Notes under the pieces: model-generated
Databases searched by the model: none
What the model was told of the DNA's origin: nothing
The model's input: only the letters and a program-made list of their open reading frames with translations
Position numbers and translations under genes: made by a program
Shown: piece by piece, positions 6,452 through 54,017 of the stretch
How the letters are laid out: every line of letters starts with the position of its first letter
Position numbering within the stretch: position 1 is the stretch's first letter
DNA from: Botryllus schlosseri
Lineage: Eukaryota
Reading direction: 5' to 3'
NCBI GenBank assembly: GCA_051294905.1
Contig: CM119371.1
Location: forward strand, 33,730,001-33,794,000
Length of the DNA: 64,000 bases

Positions 6452-6480
6452 ACGGCTATGTATTTTTTATTTGCCTAATA

Positions 6481-8523: not shown

Positions 8524-8557
8524 TATAGATAACTAAGGTAAACCTTAGTTATCTATA
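8524..8557. mobile_element. 34-bp palindrome of two P-like TIR tips (probable excision footprint)
   Basis: TATAGATAACTAAGGT-AA-ACCTTAGTTATCTATA flanked by 7-bp direct repeat CTTATAT. First 13 nt are identical to the TIR at 26184. Confidence 0.7.
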
Positions 8558-24091: not shown

Positions 24092-26387
24092 CCGTAAATG
24101 CCGCACCCGAATCCCGCTAATTGAAGGGGGCCCAAAGTCATTGCATGAATGACCATAAAATAAAGCGTACTTTTAAAAAAAAGTTCATCCAACTTATTCA
24201 GTTTTTTGTCGCGCTTTGAGCGATTTAGTGTCACTAAATGCATTAATTTCTGGGTGCCCTTCCCCCACGAAATACGCATGATTTATAGTAATATACATCT
24301 CGACATCAGTCACTACCACGCAACGACGCACCAACACATGATGAAGTTATAGGCTGACACGGGACTCCAAAATGTGTGTCGAAAATTTAGCAGCGAGAGC
24401 ACCTTAGCCGAAAAGGACACGGCCCTGACCGAAAACGTCGATATATTTATACGTCAATTTGTCTATAGGTGCCTTAATGGCTGGCGCCGAATTCCACTGT
24501 CCATACAATCTGTACACCATATGACAAATGCTATCCCACAGTGAATAGTTCTTTTTCCATTGCAGATATATAAATTTGGAATCGTGTGCGGAGTCTGAGC
24601 TGGAAGGAGGCCCAAAATTATTTCGTGAATGAACATAATTTATTGAGTATTTTTTTCTCAAACTTAATCCAAATCTTTTTAACCTTTTAGCATCAGTAAA
24701 TGTCTTGATTATTGGGTGCCATTCACCCAAGAAATACGCATGATTTGAAGAAATAGGCATTTCGCCTACAGCTATGACCAAACCACGACGCACCAACACA
24801 TAACCAAAGTTTTGACCAACATGGCACTCCAAAAAGTCTACCAAAAATTCAGCAGCAAGAAAACCGTTGCCGAAAAAAAACTGCGCTTTGTTGACTGAAA
24901 ATTTCGATATATTTATATAGGTGCCGAAATGTTTGGCGCCGAATCTGTACCCCAAAGGACGAATGCCCTACCACCGAGAAAAAGTATTTGCCATTACAGA
25001 AACACCAATTTGAAATCGTGTACGTTTTTTTAGTTTAGTGCGTTTGGGCGATTTAAATATCTGTGAACTATTTAACAGACAGTAGGTCACGAAGCAATGA
25101 CATGCGACGAAGCAATTATTCTAACAGGCCAGCCCGAATTATTTATTACGTGCCCTAAATTGTGCAAGACGACAACTTACATAGCTCTACCAAAAATCTG
25201 ATAATTCTGAGAGGATATAAAATTTATAACAATATATATGCAATTACCAATATTATTGACCGATTCAGTCGTGAATTATAAAAAATATTCGCGCTTCGCG
25301 CGGCTAGGTTGCATATGATAAGCTCTCTGCCTACACTGAGTAGAATGAACGTTCGCACAAGTATTGGTTAAAACGACCATTCAACTGTGGGGGAACAAGA
25401 CCAACGTTTTCAGGCGGGTGGGCTGACGGAGTGTTTTTCGGCTCTGATTTTGTGGATGACTGACCAGGTAGGCCTATAGCTGTTGTCAGGTGTTTTCGTG
25501 CGGTGCGGTAGGTCTCGCACTCAGAACCCATTCGTGTTGCAGCTGTGGAATGTAGGCCTACCACTACCCTATCTCTCTGATTTTGCCATAATTACTGGAA
25601 ATATTGTAATGTTGACTAAAAAAAAAGGTCCTCACTCTCCCGAATTATCCTGTATTTACCTATGGTTCGGCAGTGTTGAACGAAAAGTCATTTTTAAGAT
25701 TTGACTCCCGCATACTCCGTCGTTCATCTTTTAGGTCAACATTGAACGTCTTTCGTGGTCTTCCTGGGCATTTCCGGCTTAAAATGAGTATAAATTGTCA
25801 CAAAGGAGGACATTTGGGCCAAGGGAGTACATTTTTCCAAAAATGACGACAAATCGGACTTATGGTAGCTTAACCCCTACTCGAAGGCACCGCAGCGGCC
25901 GCCAGGATAGAAATTGAGGATGGGCGAAATGTATTAAATAATGGCATGACGTCACCAATATACATTGTGACTTAGTGAATTTCATCACACTGCCCAAGAG
26001 GGCATTAGTCTGTAATCTGCGCTCTTGTAATTAGCTGCCTTGAAATGTCTAATTAATACCCTCATACCGTCCATACCGACATTCTAATCTATATAAGATA
26101 TGTATTACCCACTCTATGAATGATTATTACGCACGTTGACATTTCCGTGTGATATTTGCTGCTTCTTTTCTACTCAGTCATACTATAGATAACTAACCTA
26201 CGGATAGATGGGCAACACGTGATTCACGGTCGAGAGACCGGATGCTCGTCAGATTTGTTGTCGCTTCATAGCATGAAGCGGCAGGTTGTTGGCCAGATTG
26301 ACTGTTAAAAATGCAAGTATGTTTGGTGCAGATAGGATATAGGGCAATCAGAACAGGTTATTGATACAGTACATAACCACTGGCGCG

Positions 26388-26961
26388 CAGGGTTGTAACC
26401 AAGTCACAAGGCTCCGAGTCACAAGTCAATCTGATTTTTATAGTTTTGACTCGAGTCAAGTCGAGTCATTTCAATTCACCACCGAGCCATGTCCGAGTCC
26501 AAGTCAGCGAGCAGAGGGTCGAGTCCGAGTCATGGAATTATGACTCGAGTCCGAGTCCAAGTCATTGTATAGACTGCTCAGTTTCCAGTTAAAGTCTTGG
26601 TAAACCCACTTTTATTAACTCTGTTTTGTGATATCGAATGTTTTGCATTTATAATATACCAATTTTCCTCACTTTTAGTAGTTTCTGGTCCCATATTCAA
26701 GTGCCAGTACCAACAGACGTAATCCCAATAGTGTGTTGGCTTCGGAATTACAATGAAATGTCGGTCTTGGCCGTCTGAGTGTCGAGTCAATGACTTGGTT
26801 CGAGTCATGCGCAATGACTCGAGTCCAAGTCGAGTCAATACACATATTCACTCGAGTCGAGTCGAGTCATTTCCGTATTTTGAAAAAATGACTCGAGTCA
26901 AGTCGAGTCATCAGAAAATCGTGACTCGAGTCGAGTCATGACTCGAGTCATTACAACCCTG
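26388..26961. mobile_element. CAGGGTTGTAA MITE, copy 2, inserted in the left P-like TIR
   Basis: Perfect TSD CTGGCGCG; the site is empty in the right TIR. Confidence 0.9.
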
Positions 26962-27529
26962 CTGGCGCGGCTATCATTGCATTAATATCAGGAGGATATT
27001 TCATGAGCAAAAGAAGTCATGATATTCACTCTATTATTAATTGGTTTCAATATTGACTTCGGCTCAGTCAGTGACTCGGCTCAGGCCTTCCATCGTGGGT
27101 TTGGCCATCATTCGTTTTGGCTCACCACGACTTTCAGCATATTTCTAAAAAATACATGATAACCCGAAAATACCTTGAATAATAACTATGAGGAACTGAC
27201 CTTCCAACTCAATAATCGATCCGCAAATTCACTCAGCCATGCAATTCTTTCATCGTCCAGGCTGCATATCGGATAACTAATGCGGCATGTGACGATATTG
27301 AACCATCTGTTTTAGGTCATAAAATCAAGCCCCTTGTTATATAAGTGAAAATTAGTTACTCATACCTTTCCATCATCAGAACAAAATCAGATGTACCGGT
27401 TGCTCCCATCCCTTTCAAACAATTTCCAACTTTGTGACTCAATACACCCGTAGCCAAACTGACATTCATCTGGCATGAAAAATGGTCACATCTCAGCCCA
27501 GTGAATGATTGCAAGCGCATCATCTAGAC

Positions 27530-27842
27530 CAGTGCTTCTCAACCTTTTTCAGTTCGCGTCCCATTTTCCATCCAAATTTCATTGCGTGGCCCACCAGACA
27601 CCCTTTCGCGGCAAAACGTTCAAACCACTACAGACAATAAAGCGAATAGCTGCGGGACTCATGCACTTTCGGACCAAAAACACATTTTTTCCGTAAGGCT
27701 TTAGTGAGTTTAGTCCGAAATTGCATGAGCCCCGCAGGTCCGTCAATTACAGAGAACAGATCTAAAAATTGGAATCTATCATCGTTTCTTAAAATGTCTT
27801 CGCGGCCCAAGTTGGCCGCAGCCCACCGGTTGAAAAGCACTG
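27530..27842. mobile_element. hAT MITE
   Basis: CAGTGCTTCTCAACC TIR; perfect TSD ATCTAGAC; another hAT end (CAGGGGTGTCAAAC) starts right after the TSD at 27851. Confidence 0.85.
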
Positions 27843-28080
27843 ATCTAGACCAGGGGTGTCAAACATATTTTTTGCCTACTTTAGATCGTGGATTTAAATT
27901 AACATGGGCCAATGTCAATCCGGACTAGTAAAGTGCCAGGCTGCGCGATTCCACGTCAAACAGTTTTGGGATATCCGTCCATTATATATCTTGCCCTCTA
28001 CCATTCATGTTCATGTATCGAGATCCCTCTGTTTTCGATGAATAGAGAGAGTTCCGTGTGGTCTGTTAGGATATAAGAAT

Positions 28081-28329
28081 ATCGTCGCAGTGGAATCAAA
28101 GTGACTTATGCCCATTTTACACATTTTGAGAAAATTGAATTTGCGTGCAGTTCTCAGCATCTTTCAGCCATATATTGGCCCTGATTAACTTTGAATTAAT
28201 GAAACTCACATAACCATGGCCAAGCAATGGCCGAAAAAGTTTCAAAAACTTGAATTTTTTCAAGTTTTAAAAATGGACCTTCAAAATTTGAAAACTGGAC
28301 ATAAGTCACTTTGATTCCACTGCGACGAT
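28081..28329. mobile_element. ~250-bp MITE, superfamily unassigned
   Basis: 30-bp perfect TIR ATCGTCGCAGTGGAATCAAAGTGACTTATG. Confidence 0.75.
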
Positions 28330-29829
28330 CATATCGGGTACGGTAATGCTCACCGTACTACAATAATATGATCTAAAATTATCAGGTAAAGCTACCTTGA
28401 GGAGATGCTGAGGATCGGAGCACCATGATCAGTAAATATCCAAGCCTCTAAAAATAATCCTGAACTGCCTACTGCGAATAGGGCTTAGCATTAGTTGAAG
28501 ACTTATTTACGGAATAACTGTTACCTTGAACATTTTTAGGAAGGTCATTAATAGCATCTCGAAGTGCTTTGAGTGAAGAGTGAACTTGTCTGCGAGGTGA
28601 TAGATGCCTGCGGTTTGTGGGAGGTTTCCTGACTGAAGACTTTGCACTATGGGATTTTTGTGGCAAATTCAAGGTTGGCAAGGCTCCGCAACGAAGAGAT
28701 CGTTTTCCACCAGCAGATATGATTATGGCGTCCTTTTCAAAATGGTGATCACAGATGGCTGCACTGGAATATGAAACAGTATTACTCTCGCATTATTTTC
28801 ACAATAATTCAAGCAGAATAATAAATATCCAGAAATGATCGGACTGAACGAGATATTGTAGTATTGACATACTGGAAACTGAAAATAAAAACAACTTGCA
28901 GCAGTGGAAGCGAAATATAGAATATGGTAACATAGAGGATAACATGTAGGCTACTTCCAATTATAAAGGTAGAGATAGTAATTATTATGAGACACAGCTG
29001 ATACTTACAAGAAACAAGTCGAACTTACGTTTCTTTATGCAGTAGATGTTGGAAATTATCACCTTTGGACGGATCCCGCCAATGCAATATGAATCGGGTT
29101 AAAGCACGTCTGTGCCTCCGCTCTTCATCAGACCTTGCCAAATCTGGCCTATATATTGTGAAGACGGAGCGTTTTTCCTTAGATTTCCGCTGCCAGTGAC
29201 ATCCTGGTATTGCGCAGGTGTTTGCCATACTAAGCGTTCAAGACTCAATAATTAACAAAATGCTCATTATACCAATCTGAAATTAGTCAAGTTCTCCAGG
29301 TCAAATCCAAAATACCTGAATAGTGCATTAAGTCACAAATTGAAGGGTGGTGCAAAATCTATCGAAATACTGGTATGGTTGCTGCATCACAGCACAGCAC
29401 AGTGCGCAGAAGCTTGTTGACTGACAGCTGACTACGAAGTGAAATTAATCCGGTTGTCGGCCTGGAGGGCACTCATTTGAGTACAGGCACCCTGAAAAAA
29501 TCTTCTTTTACTACTCGATTCAGATTCGAGAATCATTGTGCCTAGCCCTATGCACACATGATATCCTCAGTCAGTAATTCGAAATATAAATATTCCATAT
29601 TAATTATGCCTGGATTATGAAAACATATTCTCTTTATTTAGCAATACATACTAAAAACCTATCTCTTATTATTAGGGCGTTTTTTTACCACATAATGTTA
29701 AAATTGTAGCCAACTTCTTATCTTCATTTCTGCAACAGGGGTTAAACCCGCTCAGAGGGTGAACGTGAACTATTGAACGCTGTATATCAGGGGTCACCAA
29801 CCTTTTTGCAACCAAGGGCTACTTTTGGG

Positions 29830-32141
29830 CAGGGCATGGTATGGTATGGTATGGAAGTATGGTATGGTATGGATCGATATTTTGGTATGGAATATGGAAC
29901 AATGCAAGTATGGTAGGGAATGGAAGATTTTAATCTATGGTATGGAAAGACATTTCCATACTTCCATACTTTGGTGTTTTATACATCTTATCGTGATTTG
30001 TGCAAGCTTCATGAAGCGTACGTTGATCGCTGTTCACGGAATACGATCGCTTTTGTTATGTGTGAACGTGAACTATTGAACGCTGTGTAGATACAAATAC
30101 ACGCTTGTTCAACGGTTTAGGAGCACTTGGAATGACATGATTTTGTGATGTAATAATGACAACAGTAATGTTGATCCGATATTCTATTGAGTCTGGACTA
30201 GAGGTCGACCGATTATCGACAAGGCCGATTATCGAGGCAGATATTTAGAGCTTACCCGATTATCGATATCGGCATATGAGTGCCGATGTCTCGGCAGATA
30301 TTTTATATTTAAAAATATTTCAAAAATATTGGAAATTCAATGCTCCGTGTTCTGAATCTCAAGAAATCGACGACGCAAAGGGCGATATATGACAGATTTA
30401 CCCTTGCACGACGAGTTTAAGTAGGTGAGCATGCAGAGAACTTACCTTTTCGGGACTGATCTGCAATTCTGTATCATGTTTGACTTTTTGGGTTATCCCA
30501 AATTTCAACGAATGTGCACAATTAAGAAAAATTATTTTCAATTTCAGTTTTCTAGTTTGTTGTTCAGCATTCTGTGGCATGAACAAGTGCCATCTTGCCT
30601 AACATATAATATTTTTGGTGAAATTGTTCTCTGCTCCTTCCATATTAATATCGGCCTATGATATCGGTTATCGGCCTTGTGAGTGTGTCGAGATATCGGT
30701 ATCGGCCTGTAAAAATCGATATCGGTCGACCTCTAGTCTAGACACGACGCCTCCGAGCATAGGCTATCACGTGACGCAATAATTGGTAATGTAGGCAACT
30801 CCAGCTACCTCATTCCTTGAGTGACGACAGCTTACAAGCAATCATGATACAACGTACTAATTGCTCAATGTGATTGATAATTACATTTCTTCTGAAACAT
30901 TATCCTCACATTTATACTATTTACATACCGAGATATCCTATTGGTCATATTTCAAAATCTCTCGCATTAGGAATATAGATCAGGGAGTGGGGTAGACATA
31001 GTTTGAAATTCTCGCCACGCTAACCCCAACCAAATACTGTACTAATAATCACGCAGATCGCTGCAGTATTGACCGCCTGTAGCTGGGATATTTTATGGGT
31101 GCGCCCATATTATGAATTATTTTGCGAGTATTTACTTCAAACTTGCACGTGTCTTATGCCAATGTACTGGAAATGCGATGGTATTCTTATGGAGCAGGGG
31201 CGGGCAACTTCTCCAGTCGGTGGGCCGGATATAGGAAAATTAAGTACTTGGCGGCCGGATTGCTGAATGGATACATTATTCGCGCACATATACAAAGAAT
31301 AAATCGTATTTAATGAATGTATTTTATCGACATCCGCAATGTGGCTTTAAACCATTTCTCGTCGACAATGACAATACAATGTGGATTTGAGAACAGTATT
31401 GTCATACAGGCGCCGCCATGTCTGCTTTTCTCTGATCAACTAACTCACGGTGCAATTCTTAATTTTGATTTCAAAGCGATTGATGAGCCCGGTATCCAAA
31501 ATTTACCATTCATTAGGGTTGAGTACATCGTAAGTGCCGATAATGCAAGTCTTCTCGCTGCGATGAACTTACGCGTAAGCTCCTCTCTAGCACGTTGCGA
31601 AAAGTGCGCGCACCTATATAATAACATACAATATCTAAAATTTGACGTTTAGGCAAGTAGTGGGGAGTCTCGGCAAACTGGGGCCTCGGGCCACATTATC
31701 ATGTAAGACGGGAAACTGTCCACGGGCCGGAGAAAATCTCGTCGCGGGCCGTATGTTACCAATCCATTTTATGGACGGTCCTAGATAACAATCTGCTGAC
31801 TATATCATTTTACTCATGGAAGCTGTAGAGTAGACGTACACGGCACCTCACCACCGTGAACTAAAGCTCACCAAAACAGACTCTGTAAAACTAGTGCAAG
31901 GAATTAGATTCGCCTCATGGCTAGTTTAGGCAATAATGACATCCGAAATATCAATAATATAGGTGCTAGTGAAGGAACTATACTTATGATATTAAAGTAT
32001 TTGAAAGTATGGAATAAGTATCAAGTATGGTATGGAACAATGTTGGTATGGTATGGAAAATTGCAAGTATGGCATGGAGAGAGTACGGCAAGTATGGAGT
32101 ATGGAAAATTCTCGTTCCATACCATACCATACCATGCCCTG
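29830..32141 (+). mobile_element. Full copy of the CAGGGCATGGTATGG family (hAT-like, GTATG-rich ends)
   Basis: TIR CAGGGCATGGTATGGTATGGTATGGAA; perfect TSD CTTTTGGG. Confidence 0.9.
30199..30735. mobile_element. TAGAGGTCGACCGAT MITE, copy 2
   Basis: TIRs; TSD GTCTGGAC/GTCTAGAC; site empty in the paralogous copy (~33525). Confidence 0.9.
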
Positions 32142-33559
32142 CTTTTGGGTACTGATTGATGCGACGGCTACCATTTACTCCCGCTGTTTACCCGTATCAG
32201 ACGGAATTTCCGCTTTGATATTCATAGAATTGGGCATGGGCAGGTATCGCGTAGCAGTAACACTTCTACGAGATTCATTTGATTCAAAACATCTCATTTC
32301 AACCAGCTAGCCACGAAGACTTTTTAAGAAATCACGAATTACTTCGCACCGTGTTTATATAAATTATTATATAACAACTGTAAGCTCAGATTTTAAAATA
32401 AATCACGCCACACGTTAGACTGGACATCGTGTTATTTGTTTCTATACCGGTCAGTGGGAGGTATGGCATTGCATGCTATCAACCAGTGCGCTGTACTCTG
32501 GTATGCAACTTGCACTGCAACTCTGAGTGAGTGTTGCAAAGGCTGATACACAACGATAAGTTGAACCAAACACGCTAGCAACCTTCATAGCTGCTGCACA
32601 AGTGCGCATTCACCACTGTACTTTTCCGTGTCAACAAGGCACCAAAAGTTTGCTGCAGCCTTGTGGGCTTTGAGGTGGAGGTGATCTCGCAATGATACAA
32701 TTTCAATCTCTGACTGTTCAGCATCCAAGCATGACAGATTTCATTATACCTGACAGCAGCATCGATTACACAAAGTTAGAAACATGGTACTATAAACTTC
32801 GTTCAGTGTAAGAGAGACAAGCTGTGTCAAAAGATGCAATACGTAATGTTCATACTGCATCTGCTAGTACGTCAGCGCTATCTGCTACCGGATAGTAATG
32901 TTGTTTACTACTTTGGCCTTGTCCGGGACGTCGAGCTACCATAACTGAGCCCCCATAATTTCAAGAAGACCGTGGATGGCATGCCGTCATATCGCCTGTA
33001 TGGGCAGTACGCCGTATTCTACGTCTTCGATCTCTTGTTATTCTATTACATGTTATTGAATAGTAACCTATATTCATATTCATACTATTCAATTGTATAT
33101 TGAAGTTCTGTACCTCCAAGAAGCTCTTCAAATATTACATGTTGGTATATTATTAATTTTAATTGGGGATATTTGATATCATCATTTCAAGTGTTTATAT
33201 ATATATGTATTGTCATTTCTAAGTCACATGTTATACTTTGATTTAAACAAGAATAGGTAAATCACTCAATTTATATATTTAAAAGGTCACTAGTGATAAT
33301 CTGACGAATATTGGCAAATGCTGCTATTCGATCTATTTTTGGAACAGGCTCGCGGGCCACTCATCTGGTCTTCGCGGGCTACCTGGTGCCCGCGGGCACC
33401 AGGTTGGTGACCCCTGCTGTATATGATCAAATACACGCTTGTGCAACGGTTTTTGGAGCACTTGAAATTGCATGATTTTCTGATGTCATAATGACAACAG
33501 TAATGTTGGTCCCATATTCTATTCAGTCTAGACATGACGTCTCCGAGCATAGTCTATCA

Positions 33560-34709
33560 CAGGGGTGGGCAAACTTTTGAGTTCGCGGGCCGCATTCAAC
33601 ATCTGGATCTATTTGCGGGCCGCACTATATAAAATTGGGATTATAAACCAAAACGCAGTATTGGTATTTGATTATATAGTGATGACATGGAGATAATATA
33701 TATGCTTAATAAAACAAACCAAACATTGTTCGACACGCGTCAGAAACAGTGACGAGATTTCATAGGCTGGTCGACCTATTAATAACCAATTTGTCAAAAC
33801 TATAGAGATGAAAGTCGGTTGTCCCGATTCTTAGAACAGGATTGAAATTTAAATCTGTGAGCAGCGATCTGCTCATAGATTTACCAATTTCACAAATGGT
33901 CCAGTTCCAGGACACACAATGCTGACAGCACCATAACCATGTTAGTTTCAAGCAAGCTTCCACTATGTGTAGATAAAATATAAATACCCAATTCCACGCA
34001 TCAGAGAACGAATCTACCTAAGACACGCGCGAATCGTTTTTTATAAGTCTATCACTGAAATGACTAAAACTAAAGTGGCCAATCTGAAATCACACTCATG
34101 ATCCGAATCATGTCAATCTCGTTTAGAATATCTGTGATGTTTAGCAGTTGAAACCTTTCAAACTGCGTGGGCCTTGAGATCGGGCTCTCACGCCAGAAAT
34201 TAAACATAAAAAATATTATAGGAAGTATTTACCTTAGAACAGTGATTCTCAAACTTCTTAAGATACGCCCCCCCCCCCTTATGATGGTCAAATATTTTGC
34301 GTCCCCCGTATCGTCATATCACTAAACGCAACCAGGATGCTAGCCAATCTAACGGGTAGTTTGATGGCATGGAAGGCTACGACTGTGGATGAGAGATTTT
34401 TAAATATGAAATTCAGACTTAAATACAGAGCATATAATTATGAATGACATATGTAAATCGCGCGAACCGCGAAAACTTTTTTCAGTTGAGCTCAACTTCG
34501 CGCCCCCCTCCAGATGCTTTCACGCCTCCAGTTTGAGAACCACTGCCTTAAATCATGGTGAAATATACTACGAAAAATCCCTGCATTAATTCGATTTTTA
34601 GTACGCGTTTTATCAATATTTTTACTAAGTTTCTTTACACGCTCGCGGGCCGCACAAAATGGTGTTGCGGGCCGCATGCGGCCCGCGGGCCGTAGTTTGC
34701 CCACCCCTG
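33560..34709. mobile_element. hAT element with a smaller hAT MITE (34240-34545) inside
   Basis: TIR CAGGGGTGGGCAAAC; perfect TSD GTCTATCA; inner MITE TSD CCTTAGAA/CCTTAAAT; related to ~4020-4343. Confidence 0.85.
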
Positions 34710-34745
34710 GTCTATCATGTGTCTATCATGCGGTAATGTTGGCTA

Positions 34746-40020: not shown

Positions 40021-40296
40021 CAGAGATGGGCGGATTCCAAAATTTCGGGATCCGAATCTATCCGGATCCGGCTTGCAATTGGAAATTCAGAGTCCAAAGA
40101 AATCCGGCTGGTGAATGTCCAGTTCGGAATCCGAAAAAATCCTGCCAGAACAATGCTAATTAATCATATCACAGCAAAAATAATCCGGCTAAAATCCGAC
40201 CGTCACCCCAAATTCAAAATCCGGATCCAGTCCGGCCAGGTAAAAAAAACATTGAAATCCTGCTCCGGCTCCAGAACCGGACTGTGGCCATCTCTG
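40021..40296. mobile_element. CAGAGATGG MITE with ATCCGG repeats
   Basis: Perfect TSD GTTACGAC. Confidence 0.85.
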
Positions 40297-40709
40297 GTTA
40301 CGACCAGGTGATAATAGGCAACCAAAGCGGAGGCACCCGGCGTACGATTGGATCAATAGACTGGACGTGGACAACTTCTAGACCTCTCATTTTCGCTCTA
40401 AAGGCAACTGCGTAAACTACGTACGCAGCAAAGATTCAATACGATTCATGTTCGCGCTTGACTTGACCTGACTAATTCCAATGACTAACTCGAGAGATTG
40501 CGTAAGCCTAACTGGAAAGGTCAACGAGTTCGGACACATACGCAATTGTTATCTCATAGATTGGGCCTGTCATATTGAATCCAGAACATCAATTTGAATG
40601 GTCTTTGAAGAACTAAGGACAGCAGCCTCGGAACTTCGGTCTCGGAACAACATAGGACATTTTGGCCTTGAAACTGGAGACTGTGACACAACACATACGG
40701 CTTACTGTC

Positions 40710-42563: not shown

Positions 42564-44962
42564 AGTCTGCTGCGAAATCGCCGTTGGAAAATATATTAAT
42601 CAATAAATACATGAATAAAAGCCGTAAACTTAGTATACTGTTACAAGAAATCATCGAGAAGTAGCATACGCAATCTCATAACCCATTCCGGTATGGTACA
42701 CTGTCAAAATCAATACAAACAGACGAACACCGAACTTTGACTAAAATAGATCGAGGAATAGGCTGATCGAATGATCAGCTGTTTGCCGACATCGAAAATG
42801 AAATAGCTATCGCATTTGACAGAAGATTGTAAGCAAATGGTTAGAAGGCCACAATTTCACAGTGAAATGGACATTGGCGAACATAAAATTATGTGAATAT
42901 TTGAATGCAAACCGAGAATCTTGGTTAGCTGTTTCATGCGATCATCGAGATATACCATTGGAAATATCATCACCGATCTCGTTATGGGAACGCAGACTAT
43001 AGATTAGCACAGACCGACACCGGCTTTTGCGTGAGATCCGCAATGACGTAGGTAGGCTAAGTATCAGATCAGCGCGCATCTCTACCATACTCGACCTCGA
43101 AAACGAAATAACTGCCTCAATCATTGAGTGTCAACTTTAAGACTTGGCACCGCGTTCGATACTAAAATCAAGACATACCGTGCAAAAGCTCATGACAGAT
43201 CTAGGTATGGAACATCGTTAAAATCAATAGAGACCAATAACGGCTTTTGCGTAAATTTGTTAGCGATAAATGAAGAGTCAGCTCTTACTCGACTTTGGAA
43301 ACGAAATTACCACCCACATAGTTCAGTGACAAACTTAAAACTTGTTACAGCGGTCGATACTAACACTTACCGTGCCAAATGTCATGACCGATCTCGGTAT
43401 AGAACATCGTCAAAATCAATGGAGACCAATACTGGCTTTTGAGTAAAATCTGTTTGCTGTACTATGTACAATTGTACATGATAGATCAGCACACACTGAA
43501 CTTCGGAAACGGAATTACTACCCTTATCTTTAAGTAGCAAGCCTGAAACTTGGAGCAGTGTTAAATACTACCTTCACGACATATCATACCAAGTTTCAAG
43601 AATTATCATGGTGCGAAACACAGTCAAAATCGACCTATACCAGCAAAGGTCGACTCAACGCATATTACGGTAACCGAGTTCAGATATAGATACGATTGTT
43701 ACATCACACCTTAGGGGCGACAGGCATATTTGCCCCGGTTGCTCGGCCATTTTACGAATAGGAGAGAGTAAATCACCGTTTCTTTATTGTGCGCGGCTTT
43801 GAGAGAATAGATAGTGAAAGCTTGTTATGAGCGCTACCGGGGCAAGCCCCGGCTAGGCATTCTCAAAGCGAAAACACAGAAGAGAATTCGATTTTCGCAG
43901 AGACTTCGCTATGTATGGGCCTTTGCAAGCGAAAGCACAAGAAGAACGCGGGTTTCGCTGTGATCTCGGTATGTATTGATTGCTGTGCGTCTATAAATGG
44001 TTAAATTGTTATTGAACAGAATTTTAGGTGGGGCAATGCCCCAGTTGCCCTATAGGACGAGCCGCCACTGGTATTTATTGTATGTATTTTATCGACAGCA
44101 ATGTCACTTCAAAGCCATTACTCGCCGATATTGAAAATACTATGTCGATTTGAAAACAGCATTGCCATACAGTCGCCGCCATGTCTGCTTCTCTCTGCTC
44201 AACTAACTCACAGCGCAATCCATAATTAAGATGTCAAAATGTTTGATAAGCCCCCTTACCCAAAATTTACCAAGATATCAATTCATTAGGGTTGAGTACA
44301 CCGTAAATGCCGATAATGCAAGCCTTCTCGCTTCGAAGAACTTACCCGTAAGCTCCGCTCTCGCACGCTGCGCAGTGCTCAGATCTATATAATAACATGC
44401 AGTCACTAAAATTTGACGTTTAGGCAAGTAGTGGGGAATCTCAGCAGACTGGGGCCGCGGGCCACATTATCATGTAAAACGGGAAACTGTGAGCGGGCCG
44501 GACAAAATCTCGTCGCGGGCCGTATGTTGCCAGTCCCTTTTGTGGACGGTCCTCGATGACAACCTGCTGACTATCTCATTTTGCTCGCGGAAGCTGTAGA
44601 GTAGAGAGATACACGGCACCTCACCACTGTGAACTAAACCTCACCAAAACAGATTCTGTGAAACTATTACCAGGAGTTAGATTCGCATCATGGCTAGTTT
44701 AAGCAATAACGACATCCGAAATATGAATAATATAGGTGCTAGAAAAGGTACTATACTTATGATATTGAAGTATTTGAAAGTATGGAATACGTATCAAGTA
44801 TGGTATGGAACAATGTTGGTATGGTATGGAAAATTGCAAGTATGGTATGGAGAGAGTAAGGCAAGTATGGAGTATGGAAAATTCTCGTTCCATACCATAT
44901 ACCATACCATGCCCTGAATGTGAGACGCCGTATAGCTACTTGGCGTCTGAATTTGTCTAGCG

Positions 44963-47900
44963 CAGCGCTTCTCAACCGGGGGTCCGCGAAGCAATTTCAG
45001 GGGGTCCGCGAGTCCTATAAATTTTTAGTATTGTTGATATTCTAATTTTTATTTTATTTTTTTGATTTAAGAAAGCATGAGGCAGTTTCGTACCACAACT
45101 GCTTAAACCTCATGACTCATATCATCATCATAATCGTCTGACATGAACTATCGTAGTGCGGAAATTCATTTTCATTGCCCATTTTCCATTATCCTGCTGA
45201 TACAAACATATTGCTGTTTGAGACGTTTTGTAGGGGTTTGTGGAAAAAAATAAAAATATGGAGATTGTAACGTCAATCAGGGTGACTTCGTAATGTCTGC
45301 AAAACCTTCTCGATTTGAAGTTGTCAGTCTCATCAAATTAGTGTACAGTCGTTTGAAATAAAAATTTCCGAAGTATATCCTTAATTTGTCCCAATGCAGG
45401 TATTGAAACCTCGCCACGAAATCCATTTTATCATGTGATATACATAACCACTATTTGAACAGCTTTTTAGAGGTACAGAACTTCAATATACAATTGAATA
45501 GTATATTCATATTGAAATGAACCCGAATATTTTCGGCTGACATCCGTCATAAATCGGACAATGATATACCTGCTCTTTCAGACCCAGCCCCCTCTATAGA
45601 GTGGGTGATTGTCTCTGCTCTTTCAGACCCAGCCCCCTCTATAGAGTGGGTGATTGTCTTCCGGCAATACCCGCGCCCATTCTATAGAGGGGCGACATGA
45701 AGTTCACGATTCGGACGGCCGTCGATTTCGGCTTAAGGTGCAAATGATCCTTTAACATTTTCTTGTAATAATGTTATCGTAATTTTCGATAATATAACTG
45801 TCACGGGGCATATTAAATGAATGCAACATAGCAAAGTCGCCGATAATAGTTGTCAATCAAGCTGAAATATATGATTGTGAACTCAAAATCAATAGTCAGA
45901 TTTCATTGATGAATAAACAATGTAGTATGGTCGCATTGCGTAATCTCGTACTAAAGAATACCGTATCGCTGTGTGTGAGTACCGACAAGACAGGAGCTTC
46001 AGGCAACATTCTAGCTAACGGTCTGCCGACCCTGTTGTGTCCCCGTGTGCTACAGAATACCGTTTTTCTTGAGTACCAGCAAGCTATGAGCTCCCGTTAT
46101 ATTCAAGTGAATGGTCCTGATGATCTTGCCCACAACCGTGTCGAACAAAACCACTTACTACAACCTACAGAAGTCAGAAGTGAACTGCTGCCGGAAGAAT
46201 TCACCAGACATGTGTGCGAACAAATGAATGTTTATGCGAAAAACAAACATACCAACAAAACATAGCAAGTGCGTTGACGATTATAATCAGGGAATGAACG
46301 GAGTTAATCGCACAGATAAAAACAATGCCTTACTACAGCTTTGAGCGTAGCTGTAAAAAATGGTGGAGGAAACTTTCTTTCACTTCTTCAGTCTAGCAAC
46401 CACTAATGCCTATATTTTGTATTTGGAATATGTTAGCCGATACGGATACATCATGGTCAAGTTGAGAGCCAAGCATATTGCACAGCCACCTCCAGCAGGT
46501 GCCAAAAGACTGCACCTGCCATATCTGTTACTACAGAGAGCGTACCAAACAGTTATGTGAAGGAGCATATTTCTCTTGATCGGGCGGCTTCTGAATCTTG
46601 ATGTCAATTCGTAATATTTGCCATCAATGTCACAGATGCAGAGGGTCTTCTTTTTTTCGTTCTCCTTTTATTGACTTCACCATGCTTGAAAATAAACATC
46701 ATTATGAGTACCGTACCATTGCCTATATACTCTGAGTAATTCATCACAATTTGACTGATATCAAAATTATAGGACATAGCTCATCTAGATACTAATAGTT
46801 AGATTACCTATCTAGTTGCTAAAAGCTAGATAATATTCAGGGGCTGGAGAACCCTGCTTGATGTTTGATGATATTCATGTTCTTGTGGTTAAGAAAGTAC
46901 CATGCTTTCCTGCTAGAACATTGGTATTCTAAACAAAATCCAAATGCAAATACACATTACACACTTTCCCTGATGCACTCCAGCGCGTTTCCTGCGCCTA
47001 TGTTACTTCTCAGGTACAAAACGAATGAGACTCGATTGACATCTGCCGTTATTTTTTCCAATACAATTACATGATTACAAGCAGTACCAAACATTTTATT
47101 TCAATAGATTTAATCTATAACCATACAAATAAATTAGCCAAAAGTACGTACTTACCGCAACTTATCCGGGGAATATTCACTCACCGCAATTCGACCTACA
47201 CAACATATCAACACAGCGGCACATCTACTTTTCCAAATTATTCCAAAATCATACAGCGTGAAGCGTCTTGATACACCCTAAACAGTGATGTGTCACATGC
47301 GTCGAATAACCAAAAACTCGCAAGTCTGTGAATCTTAGAATATGCGCAATCAAATGCAATTTTCCGGGAATTCGGGGTGTTCAGAGACAATGGCCTGGGA
47401 TTCAAAGAGAGCTCGGCTATCAGATTTGGCGCATTCTTATTGCGGATGCCCTATCGACAAGGCGGGTTTTTTGAAGAACAAGGAGTGTTTCGTTGCTATC
47501 AAAGCATTACGCTTCAACCCTGAAATTCATATCACAAGTTATATTGGTACGCAGCCTTGTCTTGTTAATGTTCAATTTTTCATGGTCGAAAATGTTTTCT
47601 CGTTTATATATATGTAAACCAGAACAGAAAAAGTAGTTCCATGAAAGTCTTTCTCAGGTGGGAAAACTTGGATCCATTCTTTGGCACATAAAATTTGTCT
47701 ATACTTTTAGATTAGGATTTAACTTCGACGGTAGAAACTTTCTGCGGGCCGATCAAAATACCGTCGCGGGCCGCGCTAGATGCTGGACGTGGTATGTTCA
47801 TAAAATAGATGTTTCTTCATTTTGGTGCCATAAATGTTGCGATCAAACCGAAAGTATCGTCGGAAGCGTTATGCGTTAGCATCCATCTATCTTTCCGGAA

Positions 47901-48224
47901 ATGGTTTTCGGCACTCCTCGTTCATATCAAACGAAGACGCGGATTTTCAAGACACGACCGCGTACTTCAAGAAATACAGCAGCAAAATTAGCGTTGAAAT
48001 AATCGAAGTCTACCAATTTCTACATAAATAGTAGCCTATGATGATATTTTCAAGAAAAGTCATTATTTTTCTGTTTATCACAAGCCTACAGTTCATATTT
48101 GCACAAGACAGATATGAAGGTTGCACCATAATAGAGCTAAAATTGAACTAAAACTTGAGGGGGTCCGCGAGAGTCCGTGACGGTCAAAAGGGGTCCGCGA
48201 AGCCAAAAAGGTTGAGAACCACTA
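44963..48224. mobile_element. hAT element carrying a ~1.9-kb insertion
   Basis: CAG(C/T)G(C/G)TTCTCAACC-type TIRs, GGGGTCCGCGA repeats, perfect TSD GTCTAGCG. Confidence 0.85.
46180..46430 (+). pseudogene. piggyBac transposase remnant
   Basis: ELLPEEFTRHVCEQMNVYA joined by deletion to DYNQGMNGVNRTD..YYSFERSCKKWWRKL/FFHFFSLATTNAYILY. Confidence 0.75.
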
Positions 48225-48385
48225 GTCTAGCGTATAGGAAACTATTTGAGGGTAGTAACGCTCACGAAGGATTGCTAAAGGGTCGAAGTTGGGAGCTTTA
48301 ACGCCGACAAACAAAAGATGTCTGCTACACTATGGTAGACGTCTTTCGATGCTTATGATTACCGAGTTTCCTTGCACTTGCAGCA

Positions 48386-51300
48386 ATGACAGCGATTGCT
48401 CTAGCTGAGGATTTGACACACCTCATTAGAATCATAACAGTTCAAGAACTTAATTGTGGTGGCGAAATCAGAACGTTCAAAACGTCAGAAAAGCTAGATG
48501 AGCATATCGAGGCGGTACACTGGGCTCATCGTGTACGTCACACTGTCGACAACGAAGTGCAAGGTGTGTAAAGATTTTACCCAAGTATAGCTATGTTGCA
48601 TTCCTCAGTGAAGAATCTCTACCTGATTGTGATTTAGGGGTAATTGACTGAGTGTTAAAAAGCTTGATATTATCATGGCTTGCGATTACTTGAAAACTGG
48701 AATTCATTTAAAATAAATTGATATTTAGAGGTACTACCCATCAAATATTAGTTAGCAAGACATGTCAGCGGAGTCATGAGTCAGAATAATTGAGTAATTT
48801 AACAGTAATTGAGTAATTTAACCTGGTACTTTCCAATTTTCGTGTGGACATAATTAAACTAGTTCATGTTACACATGATCGATTTGATTGGGGGAAATTT
48901 TTCCTTCAGAGTTTCTTCTATTCTAACATTATACACTATAATCCACTCTCAACTAATTGGCTATGCTGTTTTATGACCGTTACTGTAACGTTACGAAGCC
49001 TGATTGGGTGTGAAGACAAAGACTGTATATCAATTTTTGGGACCCTCAAGGACAAAAATTCCGGGGTCCAATGTGATCATTTAGATGCTGTAGAAAATGC
49101 ACGTCCATGTGCAAACATTGATTTAGATGAAAAGGTTTTGAACACCCTTGTTGAAATGAAGCTAATATCAAGCGTAACTAGTGAAAAATGCAGCAATGAA
49201 AGAATGAGGAGTGTGCAATGTAATGCTCCACTCGTGGTGCATGCAAATTTTTAAGCATTCAATATTTCGAAGAAATACAAGTATTATTCTATCTTCACTG
49301 GCCAGAATACATACTATAGTCCTAGTGAAAGAGTGCGGGTGACAGTTGACGTTGACAGAGGCTCATGGTCATGTCTTTGCTCATGGAAAACTGGAACATG
49401 CTTGCACATCACACTGGCGAAATGGTATGTGTTCCAGACTGAACCAGAGCTCATATCATGTATGTCGAGGTAATCTTCATTGCATGACTTTCAAACATTC
49501 CATAATTAGGTTCTTAATATTTGATTTACAGTACTCAACCTCCTACTGATGACATGCAATTGAATATGAAGTATTTTCTCGAGCATAAACTGATTCCAGA
49601 AAAGATACCTAATGAATATTTGAAGGAAGGAATAATTTCAGAATTGACGCCAGAAGAAACTGTTTGCGCAAGGTGTGCTGGAGTCCTTGAAGTGAGCGGA
49701 ATGCGAAAAGCTCAGATTTAGATGTGGAAAGGTAATTAATTTTATTTTACATTTCTGTATTTCTATATGCTATTCAATTGTATATTGAAGCTCTGTAGCT
49801 CCATGAAGCTCTTTAAACATTGCTTTAATTAAGGTGCAATATAGCTTAAGTTAAACTAATGAGGTTATTTCATTCTGTTCTCAATCCGATCAATTTTAGG
49901 AGTCTGTATCAAGGAAAAGTCTTGCAATTCGTGTGGCTGGCAGGCTCGATTCCAGAATTATAAGTCTGGTGTGCATAATTTTGACGGTCATATATTACTG
50001 ACGCTGCGACTATGTATGCACTTGAAGAATAGAATAGCACTAGCTAAAAACATTGGGTATTTCAGGCATTTTCTTTGCAATATGGATCCGGTAAATTTCA
50101 TATTTCTGTCGAGAGTTTCCATGCATCTTCAAAATATGAAGATCAATGTAAGATATATGAAAAAGACCAAGAGACATTTCTCCAAGAGACATTTTTCCAA
50201 GTCTGTTGTCCTCGCAGATGATGGCCGTGCAACACTGGCTATGAAAGGTAGAGCTGCAAATTTCATCTGTGACTTTGTTTTATCATGAAGTCTAATTTTG
50301 ATTTTTCAGTATATTTAATATGGAGTTGTTACTCACAGATGATGGACCAGTTGGAAAACCGCCCGGCAATGTTGCTACTAGCTCTTTTTGCGACCGGTCT
50401 GCCAATTCTGCAATGGTGTCATGAACTGATAAAAAAGACACTATTCCTCCCACTGTCACCGACCATGTACAAGCATCAAGTGGTAGTAATGTTCCCACTC
50501 GTCTCATTATTGCTACTGTGACTGTTCCGTCGCATGTTGGTTCTGTTACCAATTCCATATATGTTGATTCATGCTATGACAAATTGTCTCAGCCGAAAAC
50601 GGAATCTTGCTCCATCGTTGCAAGAGATGCATTTGAAAATTCCGTGGACGAAAATGCCACAAAATGCAAAGATGTCCAGACACTTCCATTCAAATTCACA
50701 GATATGTTTCATTATATTTCATGTTGGTGATTGTTATTGTACTGATGACAATACTCTTTCAGAAATAAATTCACTTTTTACGTCGGCACATAAAGCAAAT
50801 AGGATTGAAGCTGTCGTGAATCGGCTACCTTTATTCACACATGACCTGCTGCTTTTGAATGGATGTAGCTGGCTAGATGATAAGGTCATTTGCTCTGCTG
50901 TCATTTTTATGAAGACTAATTAATCTTGTTCATCTCCTAAATTTCAGTTGATGGATTGTATTATTTTTGCCCTCAATGAAAAAGTAAGTCATTGCCAAGT
51001 TTTTTGTTTGCTGAAAACTATTTAAAGCTTGTAATTTCAGTCGAAGGTCATACGATGGTTGTTGTTTCCTGTCTGCTAGCTACTGATTGGTTTGTTGGTG
51101 GGAAATTTGCCTCTGGCAAGAAGAAAACAGTATGTGTCATAGTAACAAGACATTTCAATATTCTCTAATATAGTGATTCACTCTAGAAAGAAGCAGCTAC
51201 AAAATCTTTTGTAGCGCCACTTAATGTTCGTTGTGGCAGAACTGGTGCGGGCAGGGGCAACCATTGGATTCTTTTGGTAAGCATGTTCCATACCTGACAG

Positions 51301-52135
51301 ATTCTACCTTGTATTCTACATTGTAAGTTTGTGAAACTCATTGCTTCTCACCCCTTTCACCCATGTTCTGTCTCGTCAATATATTCTGTATTAGTGTAAT
51401 GTGTGTATATACTCTTTCAGATATCTGACGCTGAATCAAATATGGTTCTACTATACGATCCAATGGGCCACGAGGCTCGCTATGGGAATGTCCTGCAACA
51501 GTTCGAGTAAGTCGATGAGGTCGTATTCAAGAGACATATTTCATTTCTGTATTAATCCAGCGAATTTATACGAACGTACTCAAGAAGAGAATCAGTTGCG
51601 AGATATACAGGATTAATAAGGACCGGTGTTCAAAATGACGGATTTAATTGTGGAGTCCTTGCGTTTAAGGTTTGTGATGCGTTCATGTATTAAGATTTGA
51701 GAAAATAGATTTTCAAACTTTCATTTAATAGGTCGCCCAACTCTACTTGACCACTGGATCATCAATCCCATATGGCAACCTTGATTTTGATCATTCTCGA
51801 CGAGCTCACGAAAGCTACCGCCAGCAGTTTGATCAATTCTTGCTCGATGCGACGGGTATGTTGGTCCATGTCAAGATGAAAACCCTATTAAATACGTTGC
51901 ATGTTTTTCCTGCAGATGAGAAAGAATTGACAGATTATTGCATTAAATGCATTAGTCAAGACCACCCAAAAAAGACATGAAATGGGTATGCAATTACGAG
52001 ACTACATTTGTCAGGTATATTGATTCAAACTCGTATCCAGGTTGCGTGTGACGGCTGTGGTCGATGGACACACGAGGACTGTTGCCCGGGACAGCAGATA
52101 CCTGATCCCGATGATGATTTTTATTGCCTGCTCAT
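48386..52135 (+). pseudogene. Multi-exon Zisupton-type protein remnant: SWIM-like, CxC, Ulp1/C48 protease, PHD finger
   Basis: RVRVTVDVDRGSWSCLCSWKTGTCLHITLAKWYVFQ; LTPEETVCARC; KSCNSCGWQARFQNYKSGVHNFDGHILL (HMGXB3/Zisupton-like). WLDDK, GNHWILL, LYDPMG, QNDGFNCGV (H-D-C triad). YCIKC..W/VACDGCGRWTHEDC..FYC. GT-AG introns; several stops and frameshifts. Confidence 0.85.
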
Positions 52136-52382
52136 TTCATTGTGACTTTTACTATGGTTCCACTGCCATTTCTTGATGACTTTTAACTGTGCCAATGCTT
52201 TTTCTCAGTCATTTTTACTGTGGTTCCACTGCTCATTTCTTAATGACTTTTACCGCGGTTTCATTGCCTTCTGCTGTGGTTCCGTTGGCTATTTCATATT
52301 GTGGTATTGCAGTTTCATTACATACTGTATCTGCAGACTTAAGTCTGAAATTCATTGCGAGTGTACAAATATGGGGTGGTGA

Positions 52383-52787
52383 CAGGGTTGTAACTAAGTC
52401 ACTAGGTTTAAAGAAGTCAAGTTGAGTCGTTTTCAATTCACCGGCGAGTCAAGTCCGAGCAATCCCTAACGAGTCAAGTCCGAGAGCAATGGGTCGAGTC
52501 CAAGTCGTGGTGTTTACTGTTCCCCATCGAGTTCAGCTTCAGATCACTTATGTGGAACTCGCGGGGGCGATATCGAAGGCCTCGGATAATTTTCATGTTT
52601 ATTTTTCCCATTCTAAACATGGTTATTGTAACAGATAAAAGGCAGGTTTGGGCATATTTTTCATTTATCAGTCCTGATATACCATTCTTGAATAAGTCAT
52701 ACAATGAGTAAATCCATTTTCAAGAAAATGACTCGAGTCGTCAAAAAAATTGTGAGTCGAGTCATGACTCGATTCATTGCAACCCTG
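52383..52787. mobile_element. CAGGGTTGTAA MITE, copy 3 (diverged)
   Basis: TIRs; TSD GGTGGTGA/GGCGGTGA. Confidence 0.75.
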
Positions 52788-52945
52788 GGCGGTGATACAA
52801 TAATTTGATACAGCTAAACATGCAATAGATAATTTGGGATTCTGCCACCGCTTATTATGACAAAAATTTAACAGTATGCAATCTTAGATATCATATAGTC
52901 GCGCCATGAAAGGATTTAGCCTCTGCTCAGTTTATACCGAGACAC

Positions 52946-53175
52946 CAGACGCCAAACGCCGTATAGCTACTCGGCGTCTCAACATGACAGACGCTAAACG
53001 CCGTATAGCTACTCGGCGTCTCACCATATCAGACGCCATACGCCGTATAGCTACTCGGCGTCTCACCATATCAGACGCCAAACGCCGTATAGCTACTCGG
53101 CGTCTGGACATAACAGACGCCAAACGCCGTATAGCTACTCGGCGTCTGAACATAACAGACGCCAAACGCCGTACA
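52946..53175. repeat. 42-bp tandem array (5+ units), Zisupton subterminal repeats
   Basis: Unit CAGACGCCAAACGCCGTATAGCTACTCGGCGTCT + 8 variable nt; one related unit at ~44922-44950. Confidence 0.9.
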
Positions 53176-54017
53176 GACATTTGGCGGCCGCTCGGCGTTT
53201 GGCGTCTGGCGTTTGGCCTCTGAGCGGGTTTAACCCCTGCTCCATTTCTGGTAGGAACTAGCTGTCCTAACGAAGTAGTTTAGAATGAAAAAACGTTTTT
53301 GGCTCAGAAATAGGCAACTTTTTAACGCTACGATTTTGACAAAATTTTGACAAATTTTGACATGTCAAAAAATGGCCGCTCTAATGATTATACAAACCAA
53401 AATAGTTCAAGGAAACCTCAGCCGAAGTCAATATTGGAACCAATTAATAATAGAGTGAATATCATGACTTCTTTTGCTCATGAAATGTCCTCCTGATATT
53501 AACGCATTGATAGCCGCGCCAGTGGCTATGTACTGTATCACTAAATAACCTGTTCTGATTGCCCTATATCCTATCTGCACCAAACATACCTGCGATTTTA
53601 ACAGTCAATCTGGCCGACAACCTGCCGCTTCATGCTATGAAGCGACAACAAATCTGACGAGCATCCGGTCTCACGACCGTGAAGCACGTGTTGCCCATCT
53701 ATCCTTAGGTTAGTTATCTATAGTCATTAGTCATACTCAGCGAAACGGGATGGAACACTGTAACGAGAGCTTTAAGAAATTTTGGATCGCACAGCATATG
53801 ATGCGATGTTGTCTGTCCTCCGAGCAAGTGCTACCAAATGACGGGGTCATGAAAAGTGTTAAGCGTCGAAACCTTCTGATCTATCACGTTAGAGACAGCA
53901 TTACCGGTTTTGTAGCATTGTAGCAGTGAGAAGTCACTTTGGACGAGCGGGAATTAGGTTCATGGTATTATAGCATCCTTAAGAGCACCGTTCATGCCTA
54001 TCGTTCCTACTCGTGGG

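Follow-up and report, generated by a model that had tools for sequence, protein, structure and literature searches.

A six-level transposon nest within a Galileo/P-like element of Botryllus schlosseri

The window analysed here is a stretch of 64,000 nucleotides from Botryllus schlosseri (assembly GCA_051294905.1, contig CM119371.1), and all coordinates are positions within it. The region 26184–53722 is a genuine nested stack of transposons: inside a Galileo/P-like element lie a Zisupton-like element and about 20 more inserts. The nest spans 27.5 kb and reaches a maximum depth of six, and this is borne out on both of the paths drawn in an earlier sequence-only reading; the coordinates and target duplications (TSDs) named in that reading are present in the sequence. 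There are 12 pairs of eight-base TSDs in the nest, nine matching at 8/8 positions, two at 7/8 and one at 6/8. For two random 8-mers of the window, the probability of an 8/8 match is 2.9e-5, and that of at least 7/8 is 5.5e-4. No intact transposase gene is left in the nest. Smaller nests lie outside it, for example at 55190–57473 and ~57655–60260.

Level 1 is a non-autonomous Galileo/P-like element on the minus strand (26184–53722), with arms of ~310 bp, that has grown from ~3.1 kb of its own sequence to 27.5 kb through internal insertions. The outer arms (26184–27067, with a 574-bp MITE inside, and 53417–53722) are 94.9% alike, with 16 mismatches over 311 aligned bases, and still match as had been claimed. 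A THAP remnant is located on the minus strand at 28472–28792 (PF05485, E = 1.1e-3), its partial domain scoring 20.1 bits, below the curated cutoff of 23.9. The element is internally deleted, and three frames of 27067–27529 gave no Pfam match to a P-type catalytic transposase domain; nor was a relevant PDB match or a longer homologue found for the outer element. The left target duplication comprises 7 bp (26177–26183). The right one (53723–53736) is displaced because of a perfect 7-base tandem duplication at the outer end (53721–53727 = 53728–53734), and the 7 bases immediately past that end match the left TSD at only 5/7 positions. Two other copies of the outer-element family (59660–60235 and 8524–8557) have 7-bp TSDs matching at 7/7, and the empty site of the former is supplied by the other arm of its host (57676–57705). 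A TATA duplication for this family was ruled out, since that host arm is the empty site of 59660 only with a 7-bp TSD.

Level 1 also carries smaller inserts. A hAT-type MITE (26388–26961, TSD 8/8) lies inside the left arm, and arm contigs that lack it are present in runs X1 and X17. A second hAT-type MITE occupies 27530–27842 (TSD 8/8); directly past its right TSD, at 27851, begins a hAT-type left end that is an orphan, a search having found no right end to match it. A small inverted-repeat element (28081–28329) has putative ends, with an inverted match of 49 bases.

The outer element resembles Galileo (P superfamily, Drosophila) in its THAP domain, long TIRs and 7-bp TSD, as these are given in passages of PMC4168063 and PMC2775673. 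Two of the three TSDs of the outer-element family match five of the six fixed positions of the Galileo consensus GTANTAC in those passages, while the TSD at 8517–8523 is unlike it. A further likeness, from the same part of PMC2775673, is that defective Galileo copies carry nested hAT-type and LINE-like secondary inserts. The element differs from Galileo in that no P-transposase catalytic domain was found here and no inversion is evident, both arms and the TSD being in place. The termini of the two presumably differ as well.

Level 2 is a Zisupton/KDZ-like element on the plus strand (29733–53242; TSD 8/8, TIR 24/26) with ~4.7 kb of its own sequence. Its coding remnants (48.8–52.2 kb) gave profile matches at E = 2.8e-5 both to PHD and, below cutoff, to CxC4 (PF18717). 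SWIM-like and Ulp1-like motifs were seen in them by eye only; both domains occur in Zisupton. The remnants gave no match to the KDZ core or Peptidase_C48, and no longer homologue was found. A 42-bp subterminal tandem array is located at 52946–53173. The likeness to Zisupton (KDZ group) lies in the TIRs, the 8-bp TSD and the KDZ-associated CxC4 domain, as far as these are covered in the relevant part of PMC12730594; the differences are that no KDZ catalytic domain was found here and that the left subterminal region is largely deleted. A literature search on Zisupton and related terms found no paper. The left end of this element is interrupted at level 3 by a hAT-type element (44963–48224, TSD 8/8), whose host rejoins against a copy at 14408–15329. 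Inside the insert lies a piggyBac transposase match (~45567–47465; DDE_Tnp_1_7, E = 8.9e-5, 22.4 bits, equal to the cutoff). Neither a TTAA TSD nor TIRs were found at 45567/47465, and this stretch is filed as a piggyBac-derived fragment only; a protein atlas search with 45798–46262 gave no usable match. A hAT-type MITE (52383–52787, TSD 7/8) is a further level 3 insert of the Zisupton-like element.

Level 3 of path 1 is copy B of the CAGGGCATGG family (29759–44916), which is split by four inserts and has lost its left TSD together with ~232 bases at its left end. Within it, at level 4, is a non-autonomous hAT-type element (29788–33416; ~1.3 kb of its own sequence, TSD 8/8, TIR 16/16), which contains at level 5 the complete copy A of the same CAGGGCATGG family (29830–32141; TSD 8/8, TIR 27/27). 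Copy A is in turn interrupted at level 6 by a TAGAGG MITE (30199–30735; TSD 7/8, TIR 15/15) that is missing from the same site in copy B and has a relative at 19590–20123. Elements of both the CAGGGCATGG and the TAGAGG family appear to be hAT-type. An older hAT-type MITE with a decayed right end and approximate boundaries (31195–31770) is a constituent of the CAGGGCATGG family as such, common to copies A and B, and matches a free copy near 61670–62270 at 19% divergence.

Copy B has further level 4 inserts. One is a hAT-type element (33560–34709; TSD 8/8, TIR 16/16) with a MITE inside it (34240–34545, TSD 6/8). Another is an internally deleted EnSpm/CACTA-like element on the plus strand (34746–39092), with CAC..GTG ends, a TA duplication and further small inserts near 36138–36506; its junction rejoins in the alignment of A and B. 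No Pfam match to an EnSpm-type transposase was found in this element. Its homologue P0005 (E = 1.2e-6) offers a weak lead in an atlas match at rank 16, with Plavaka in 14% of members. TSDs of 2 bp also occur in EnSpm/CACTA elements. The part of PMC12730594 on these superfamilies gives CAC..GTG termini and a 3-bp TSD for EnSpm/CACTA, and an 8-bp TSD as the rule for hAT. The hAT-type layers of the nest have short TIRs and 8-bp TSDs, features that are not exclusive to hAT, and a profile search found no match to hAT transposase among the coding remnants in the window.

Path 2 passes at level 4 through a hAT-type element (39593–44070; ~2.3 kb of its own sequence, TSD 8/8, TIR 14/14) that carries a MITE (40021–40296, TSD 8/8). 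At level 5 is a THAP foldback on the minus strand (40714–42559), with arms of ~365 bp that are 2.5% apart, TATA on both sides and a THAP match at E = 2.4e-4. Among the joints listed (15 of 1488), three of four runs have host contigs without the MITE, and three of four have host contigs that skip 40710–42559 and keep one TATA; in all, host forms without three of the inserts occur in public contigs among these joints. A sister copy of the foldback outside the nest (55190–57473) is also flanked by TATA/TATA. The foldback is not P-like because its duplication is TATA; a 7-bp TSD was ruled out, as the empty host keeps one TATA and both copies in the window are TATA/TATA. ISL2EU (PHIS superfamily) is likewise THAP-bearing with a short AT-rich duplication, but in the portion of PMC4482050 that describes it the target is A|AT|T and the element starts with GG, whereas both copies of the foldback target TATA and begin with letters other than GG; ISL2EU was rejected on these two features. 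The foldback matches no THAP-bearing group compared (P superfamily, ISL2EU). A literature search for a transposon with a TATA TSD found no paper, and supplements may hold such a family.

The innermost layer of path 2, at level 6, is a retroposed fragment of ~240 bp on the minus strand (41922–42159) with an (AAT)n tail, which splits the THAP frame. It lies inside the foldback as had been described. Its 11-base TSD matches at 9/11 positions in the nest and 11/11 in the sister copy at 55190–57473; insertion at the nest locus is ruled out by its presence in that sister copy, and the fragment is a passenger rather than a local event.

In silico removal of the inserts restores their hosts. With four taken out, copy B rejoins at four sites and can be aligned to copy A over 1,503 bases, with 157 mismatches (10.4%); the two parts of the left outer arm likewise come together when aligned to the right one. 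The claim of at least five DNA-transposon superfamilies holds only when the EnSpm-like and piggyBac pieces, which the sequence-only reading had not named, are counted. An Rfam search gave 0 matches, and PDB sequence searches with the remnants gave irrelevant matches only. Pfam matches to Phytoreo_S7, Colipase-like, DUF3456 and opioid domains were discarded as chance, and homologues P0002 and P0003 as matches driven by repeats. Among the contigs listed, those of three of four runs (X1, X17 and X5) cover the left outer junction and extend past the start of the element by 19, 22 and 5 letters, below the bridging criterion of 31 letters. They give only a weak hint that the outer insertion is shared, and X1 may be the source of the assembly. 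Exact-pattern scans of JGI metagenome contigs with the left flank and arm start of the outer element gave 0 matches.

The order of insertion can be read from TSDs, as had been claimed, for five of the six levels of path 1. Level 3 is the exception: it is ordered by containment only, because copy B lacks its left end and TSD. The proposed chronology of activity stands for individual events and fails for families, because one family occupies levels 3 and 5. Divergence between copies A and B is 10.4%, against 5.1% between the outer arms. At least one layer, the retroposed fragment, is a passenger, and the MITE common to A and B was likewise not inserted separately here.

Serial insertion into dead, tolerant DNA is a well-known phenomenon, and the nest is probably an ordinary example of it in a transposon-rich region, with no function of its own. 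We regard it as an ordinary pile rather than a special trap because the flanking DNA is about equally crowded with elements. There are 12 hAT-type end motifs inside the nest versus 15 outside (4.4 versus 4.1 per 10 kb, p = 1.0), and 13 subterminal motifs inside versus 11 outside (p = 0.31). Intact hAT-type elements with TIRs and TSDs number nine inside versus five outside (n = 14; p = 0.09, one-sided), a non-significant excess from a count that gives 0–4 false calls per shuffle. When random sequential insertion was simulated from three assumed starting lengths, the maximum depth came to at least six in 6.5%, 17% and 39% of the runs, under a crude null that ignores time and uses outside lengths estimated by eye. 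Galileo copies with secondary inserts nested in them, cycles at the level of families and nests that have moved are on record (PMC2775673, PMC1794594).

A defective Galileo/P-like element holds the Zisupton-like element, and this in turn holds hAT-type, EnSpm-like, piggyBac and foldback pieces down to level six, nearly every one bearing a target duplication of its own. On the serial-insertion account the elements were probably mobilised in trans, by transposases from other loci. Every landing would enlarge the dispensable DNA that tolerates the next, so that the pile became about nine times as long over a period in which the outer arms drifted by only 5%. Some hAT-type landings may be steered by a local target preference for 8-base sites centred on TA, which every duplication makes anew (TA is found at positions 4–5 in 6 of 11 hAT-type TSDs), and a few layers would come in already inside carriers. 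The nest itself would be without function.

A bolder picture, which we hold to be doubtful, is of a reusable landing pad for unrelated superfamilies upstream of the P-like THAP gene (the staircase at 29733–30199), where landings would have recurred no more than a few hundred bases from a single point, and of a pile that may now give rise to small RNAs directed at the families in it; as a separate matter, the THAP foldback with its TATA target may represent a DNA-transposon lineage not yet classified. Considered on its own, a landing hotspot, in which the region at ~29.2–30.2 kb upstream of the THAP gene or CAGGGCATGG motifs attract insertions beside the previous left end, is unlikely. Five successive left ends of path 1 do fall within 470 bases (29733, 29759, 29788, 29830 and 30199), at relative positions in their hosts of 0.006, 0.15, 0.03 and 0.21, and a stretch of 160 bases takes in four of the five inserts into copies A and B (p = 0.017, tested post hoc); hotspots within target transposons are reported in human (PMC2836564). 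However, the pattern was noticed post hoc in few events, the tendency of 16 inserts toward host ends is non-significant (KS p = 0.056), and the closeness of the left ends is partly due to the deletion of the left end of copy B.

Still less likely is a piRNA-cluster-like trap, in which the nest is transcribed, small RNAs silence its families and selection keeps the insertions. Such a trap is proposed for Drosophila nests in a passage of PMC1794594. Here many families are gathered together, some very numerous in the genome by contig depth, and the weak excess of intact elements inside the nest points the same way. Against this, the flanks are equally rich in hAT-type ends, and the six orientable coding remnants are divided between three plus and three minus with no strand bias; this is unlike a single-strand cluster, in which inserts share one orientation, but could occur in a dual-strand cluster.

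A very improbable alternative is that a large share of the nest was assembled at other loci and arrived in composite elements, in which case containment would not date local events. PMC1794594 discusses the transposition of whole nests. The retroposed fragment is common to the sister copy at 55190–57473 (4.6% apart), the MITE of copies A and B is shared, and the three innermost MITEs whose TSDs are imperfect, at 30199, 34240 and 52383, lie inside hosts with perfect ones. Yet several inserts disrupt the ends of their hosts: 26388 lies in an arm, copy A sits 42 bases into its host, and both copy B and 44963 interrupt the left end of the Zisupton-like element. Such damage would be expected to hamper later transposition, and most TSDs are perfect, consistent with a young age. 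An assembly artefact, or two independent outer insertions, would allow for the 5/7 match past the right end and for public contigs that show neither an empty allele of the outer element nor a span of the nest, but merits almost no credence: a misjoin would not give 12 matched TSD pairs in proper nested order, the repeats inside the nest are 5–13% diverged, the arms share a similarity breakpoint and together bracket the THAP remnant and the TSD-flanked Zisupton-like element, and the perfect 7-base duplication accounts for the displaced right TSD.

Successive insertion into older elements likewise underlies the nested clusters of Drosophila high-density regions (PMC1794594) and human (PMC1914374), whose relevant passages describe an order read from interruption, family-level cycles, and nests able to move or duplicate. 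LTR elements are the commonest members of D. melanogaster nests in the part of PMC1794594 concerned, whereas almost every layer here is a class II (DNA) element. The depth of six exceeds the secondary and tertiary nesting in a figure legend of PMC1794594 and the five-level human example in PMC1914374, a comparison with those described examples only. A literature search on nested MITEs in ascidians found only unrelated papers, and supplements may hold deeper nests. The nest is a clean case for teaching and for benchmarking annotation that takes nesting into account, and shows that single nests mislead as chronologies through passengers and family cycles. Its importance would rise with proof of small RNAs or of a fixed landing site, or should the foldback turn out to be a new lineage. 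While the outer arms diverged by 5%, DNA transposons of six superfamily-level kinds arrived, a sign of very lively class II activity in the recent past of this genome.

The nest at 26184–53722 is six levels deep on both of its paths, as judged by containment. Twelve of its elements carry 8-bp target-site duplications (TSDs), nine perfect, two matched at 7/8 and one at 6/8; a random pair would match fully with a probability of 2.9e-5, and at 7/8 or better with 5.5e-4. Copies A (29830–32141, level 5) and B (29759–44916, level 3) are members of one hAT-type-looking repeat family. With four inserts cut from host copy B (29788–33416, 33560–34709, 34746–39092 and 39593–44070), leaving one TSD each, B runs colinear with A for 1503 bases, 157 of them mismatched. 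The six-deep nest is therefore real, on the matched TSDs and the rejoining of B against A. Copy B starts at about base 233 of its family, joined to the 26-bp left terminal inverted repeat (TIR) of the Zisupton-like element (29733–53242), and part of the Zisupton subterminal repeat survives next to its right end. Its left end and TSD have been lost by deletion, so that level 3 rests on containment; the order that the sequence-only reading took from TSDs holds for the layers that bear them and not for this one. That reading had also missed several MITEs, an EnSpm-like element (34746–39092) that has CAC..GTG ends and duplicates TA, and a piggyBac transposase fragment within the hAT-type element 44963–48224. 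The left edge of this piggyBac-derived insert bears a perfect 45-bp tandem duplication (45570–45659).

The stretch 26–54 kb was examined in full, and element ends and TSDs were tabulated. The outer element, which is Galileo/P-like, spans the whole nest. Its arms differ at 16 of 311 aligned bases once a 574-bp MITE is cut from the left arm. The left-flank 7-mer is found again at 53730–53736, and this right TSD is displaced by 7 bases through a perfect tandem duplication that overlaps the end of the element. Two further family members in the window, 59660–60235 and 8524–8557, have exact 7-bp TSDs; the empty site of the former is given by the other arm of its host and fits only with a 7-bp TSD. 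The latter is a 34-bp palindrome of two fused termini, either a minimal element or the trace of an excision. The closest single model is Galileo, whose described copies have 7-bp TSDs and long TIRs and harbour nested secondary inserts (PMC4168063 and PMC2775673). At 27843–27851 a second hAT-type left end begins immediately behind the right-hand TSD of the MITE 27530–27842, suggesting that the duplicated target site was re-used.

The THAP-bearing foldback of the second path (40714–42559) is not P-like. It has TATA on each side, as does its sister copy outside the nest (55190–57473), and in three of four public runs contigs of the host family omit 40710–42559 and retain a single TATA. This is incompatible with a P-type TSD; the junction is consistent with a 4-bp TSD, a 2-bp AT TSD or a blunt insertion. 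The sister copy, with arms 9.7% apart, matches neither P nor ISL2EU in target or termini. At its ends it is similar to IS3EU, whose termini are TAYGG..CCRTA according to PMC12730594, but it has no 6-bp TSD. The TATA-targeting foldback matches no THAP-bearing group compared here and is a candidate for an unclassified lineage of DNA transposons. The retroposed fragment that interrupts its THAP frame (41922–42159; about 240 bp, (AAT)n tail, 11-base TSD) is genuine. It is also present in the sister copy (4.6% divergence overall), and thus arrived with its carrier and was not a local event. In the sister, a 427-bp MITE (55831–56257) is inserted into the (AAT)n tail. An older MITE common to copies A and B forms a second passenger layer.

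The nest holds 201 stop-free pieces of at least 50 residues. Pfam was run on 126 of these (the other 75 belong largely to arms, MITEs, copy B and tandem repeats) and on five read-through pieces. Six of the 131 matched, four with transposon-related or PHD domains and two by chance: THAP in the outer element (E 1.1e-3) and foldback (2.4e-4) and CxC4 of KDZ transposases (2.8e-5) fall below the curated cutoffs, PHD (2.8e-5) being the sole one of the six that does not. Eighteen additional pieces gave three matches, DDE_Tnp_1_7 (piggyBac; 46042–46500, E 8.9e-5, at the cutoff), a zinc-finger gene and one by chance; 11 more yielded two, one for THAP in the sister foldback and the other by chance. Motifs near 49370 and at 50870–51660 look SWIM-like and Ulp1-like, respectively, when compared by eye with the consensus. 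The EnSpm-like frame matched four proteins at E ≤0.001, two of them true homologues (P0004 and P0005); P0005 is a weak lead towards Plavaka. In the nest pieces searched with Pfam and for homologues, no catalytic core was found for the P-like, Zisupton-like or EnSpm-like elements, nor, among those scanned, coding evidence for any hAT-type layer. These labels consequently rest on ends and TSD length.

Interruption-based ordering is standard practice (PMC1914374). Provided that the outer arms started out identical, inserts made in place are younger than the 5.1% now separating them. The 10.4% difference between copies A and B means that their sources had already diverged; as their family sits both outside and inside one hAT-type element, at levels 3 and 5, the nest orders events and not families, and the relative chronology originally proposed stands only for individual events. 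PMC1794594 describes such family-level cycles in Drosophila, as well as nests that move ready-made.

Misassembly is very unlikely, as a misjoin would not give twelve TSD pairs that match and are properly nested; the internal repeats are also diverged from one another. Contigs from three of four public runs pass from the left flank 19, 22 and 5 letters into the outer element, too short a distance to count as bridging the junction. No empty allele of this element turned up in exact-pattern scans of JGI metagenome contigs for its left flank and arm start. A segment of about 55 bp recurs in four different elements (33082–33138, 45452–45504, 49750–49830 and 15273–15331), coincides with a strong contig break in each of the four runs, and may be a captured piece or one end of an element not yet recognised.

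A piRNA-cluster-like trap, suggested earlier as a possibility, is unlikely. The six orientable remnants divide equally, plus (Zisupton-like, EnSpm-like, piggyBac) and minus (P-like, foldback THAP, retroposed fragment). Within the window, hAT-type end motifs number 12 in the nest versus 15 outside (4.4 versus 4.1 per 10 kb), a subterminal motif 13 versus 11 (p = 0.31) and a third motif two versus four. Over 20,000 runs of random sequential insertion of 57 elements (36 outside lengths being by-eye estimates), the share reaching a depth of at least six was 6.5% when the starting length was 17.1 kb, 17% at 10 kb and 39% at 5 kb. Against an ordinary pile are counted an excess of intact TIR+TSD elements inside (nine versus five in an unbiased scan, p = 0.09, with 0–4 false calls per shuffle), a lean of inserts towards host ends (p = 0.056, n = 16) and the clustering of four of five A/B inserts within 160 bases (p = 0.017, post hoc). 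Hotspots within target elements are reported in human (PMC2836564). The staircase of left ends (29733–30199) is a candidate lead.

Throughout the window short dispersed repeats are abundant, GC is 37–44% and CpG depletion is slight. Only one long frame is intact, a C2H2 zinc-finger array (17546–18544) of 333 codons, which lies 7.6 kb from the nest and has an 84-bp period and 10 matched double-finger stretches. A minus-strand frame of 216 codons (1127–1777), by eye like a retrotransposon gag start and without a Pfam match, is broken by a hAT-type fragment. A second nest (57655–60260) is a long-armed element with telomere-like, TTAGGG-containing internal repeats that contains an insert near 57950–59170 and the P-like foldback MITE 59660–60235; a probable third (1862–7585) has a pair of hAT-type ends around several MITE and P-like fragments.

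The original observation thus stands, and its interpretation in part. The best explanation of the six-deep nest, and a fairly probable one, is serial insertion into dispensable DNA of a repeat-rich region. The nest is well preserved, consists mostly of DNA transposons, and is one more case of a known kind of structure.
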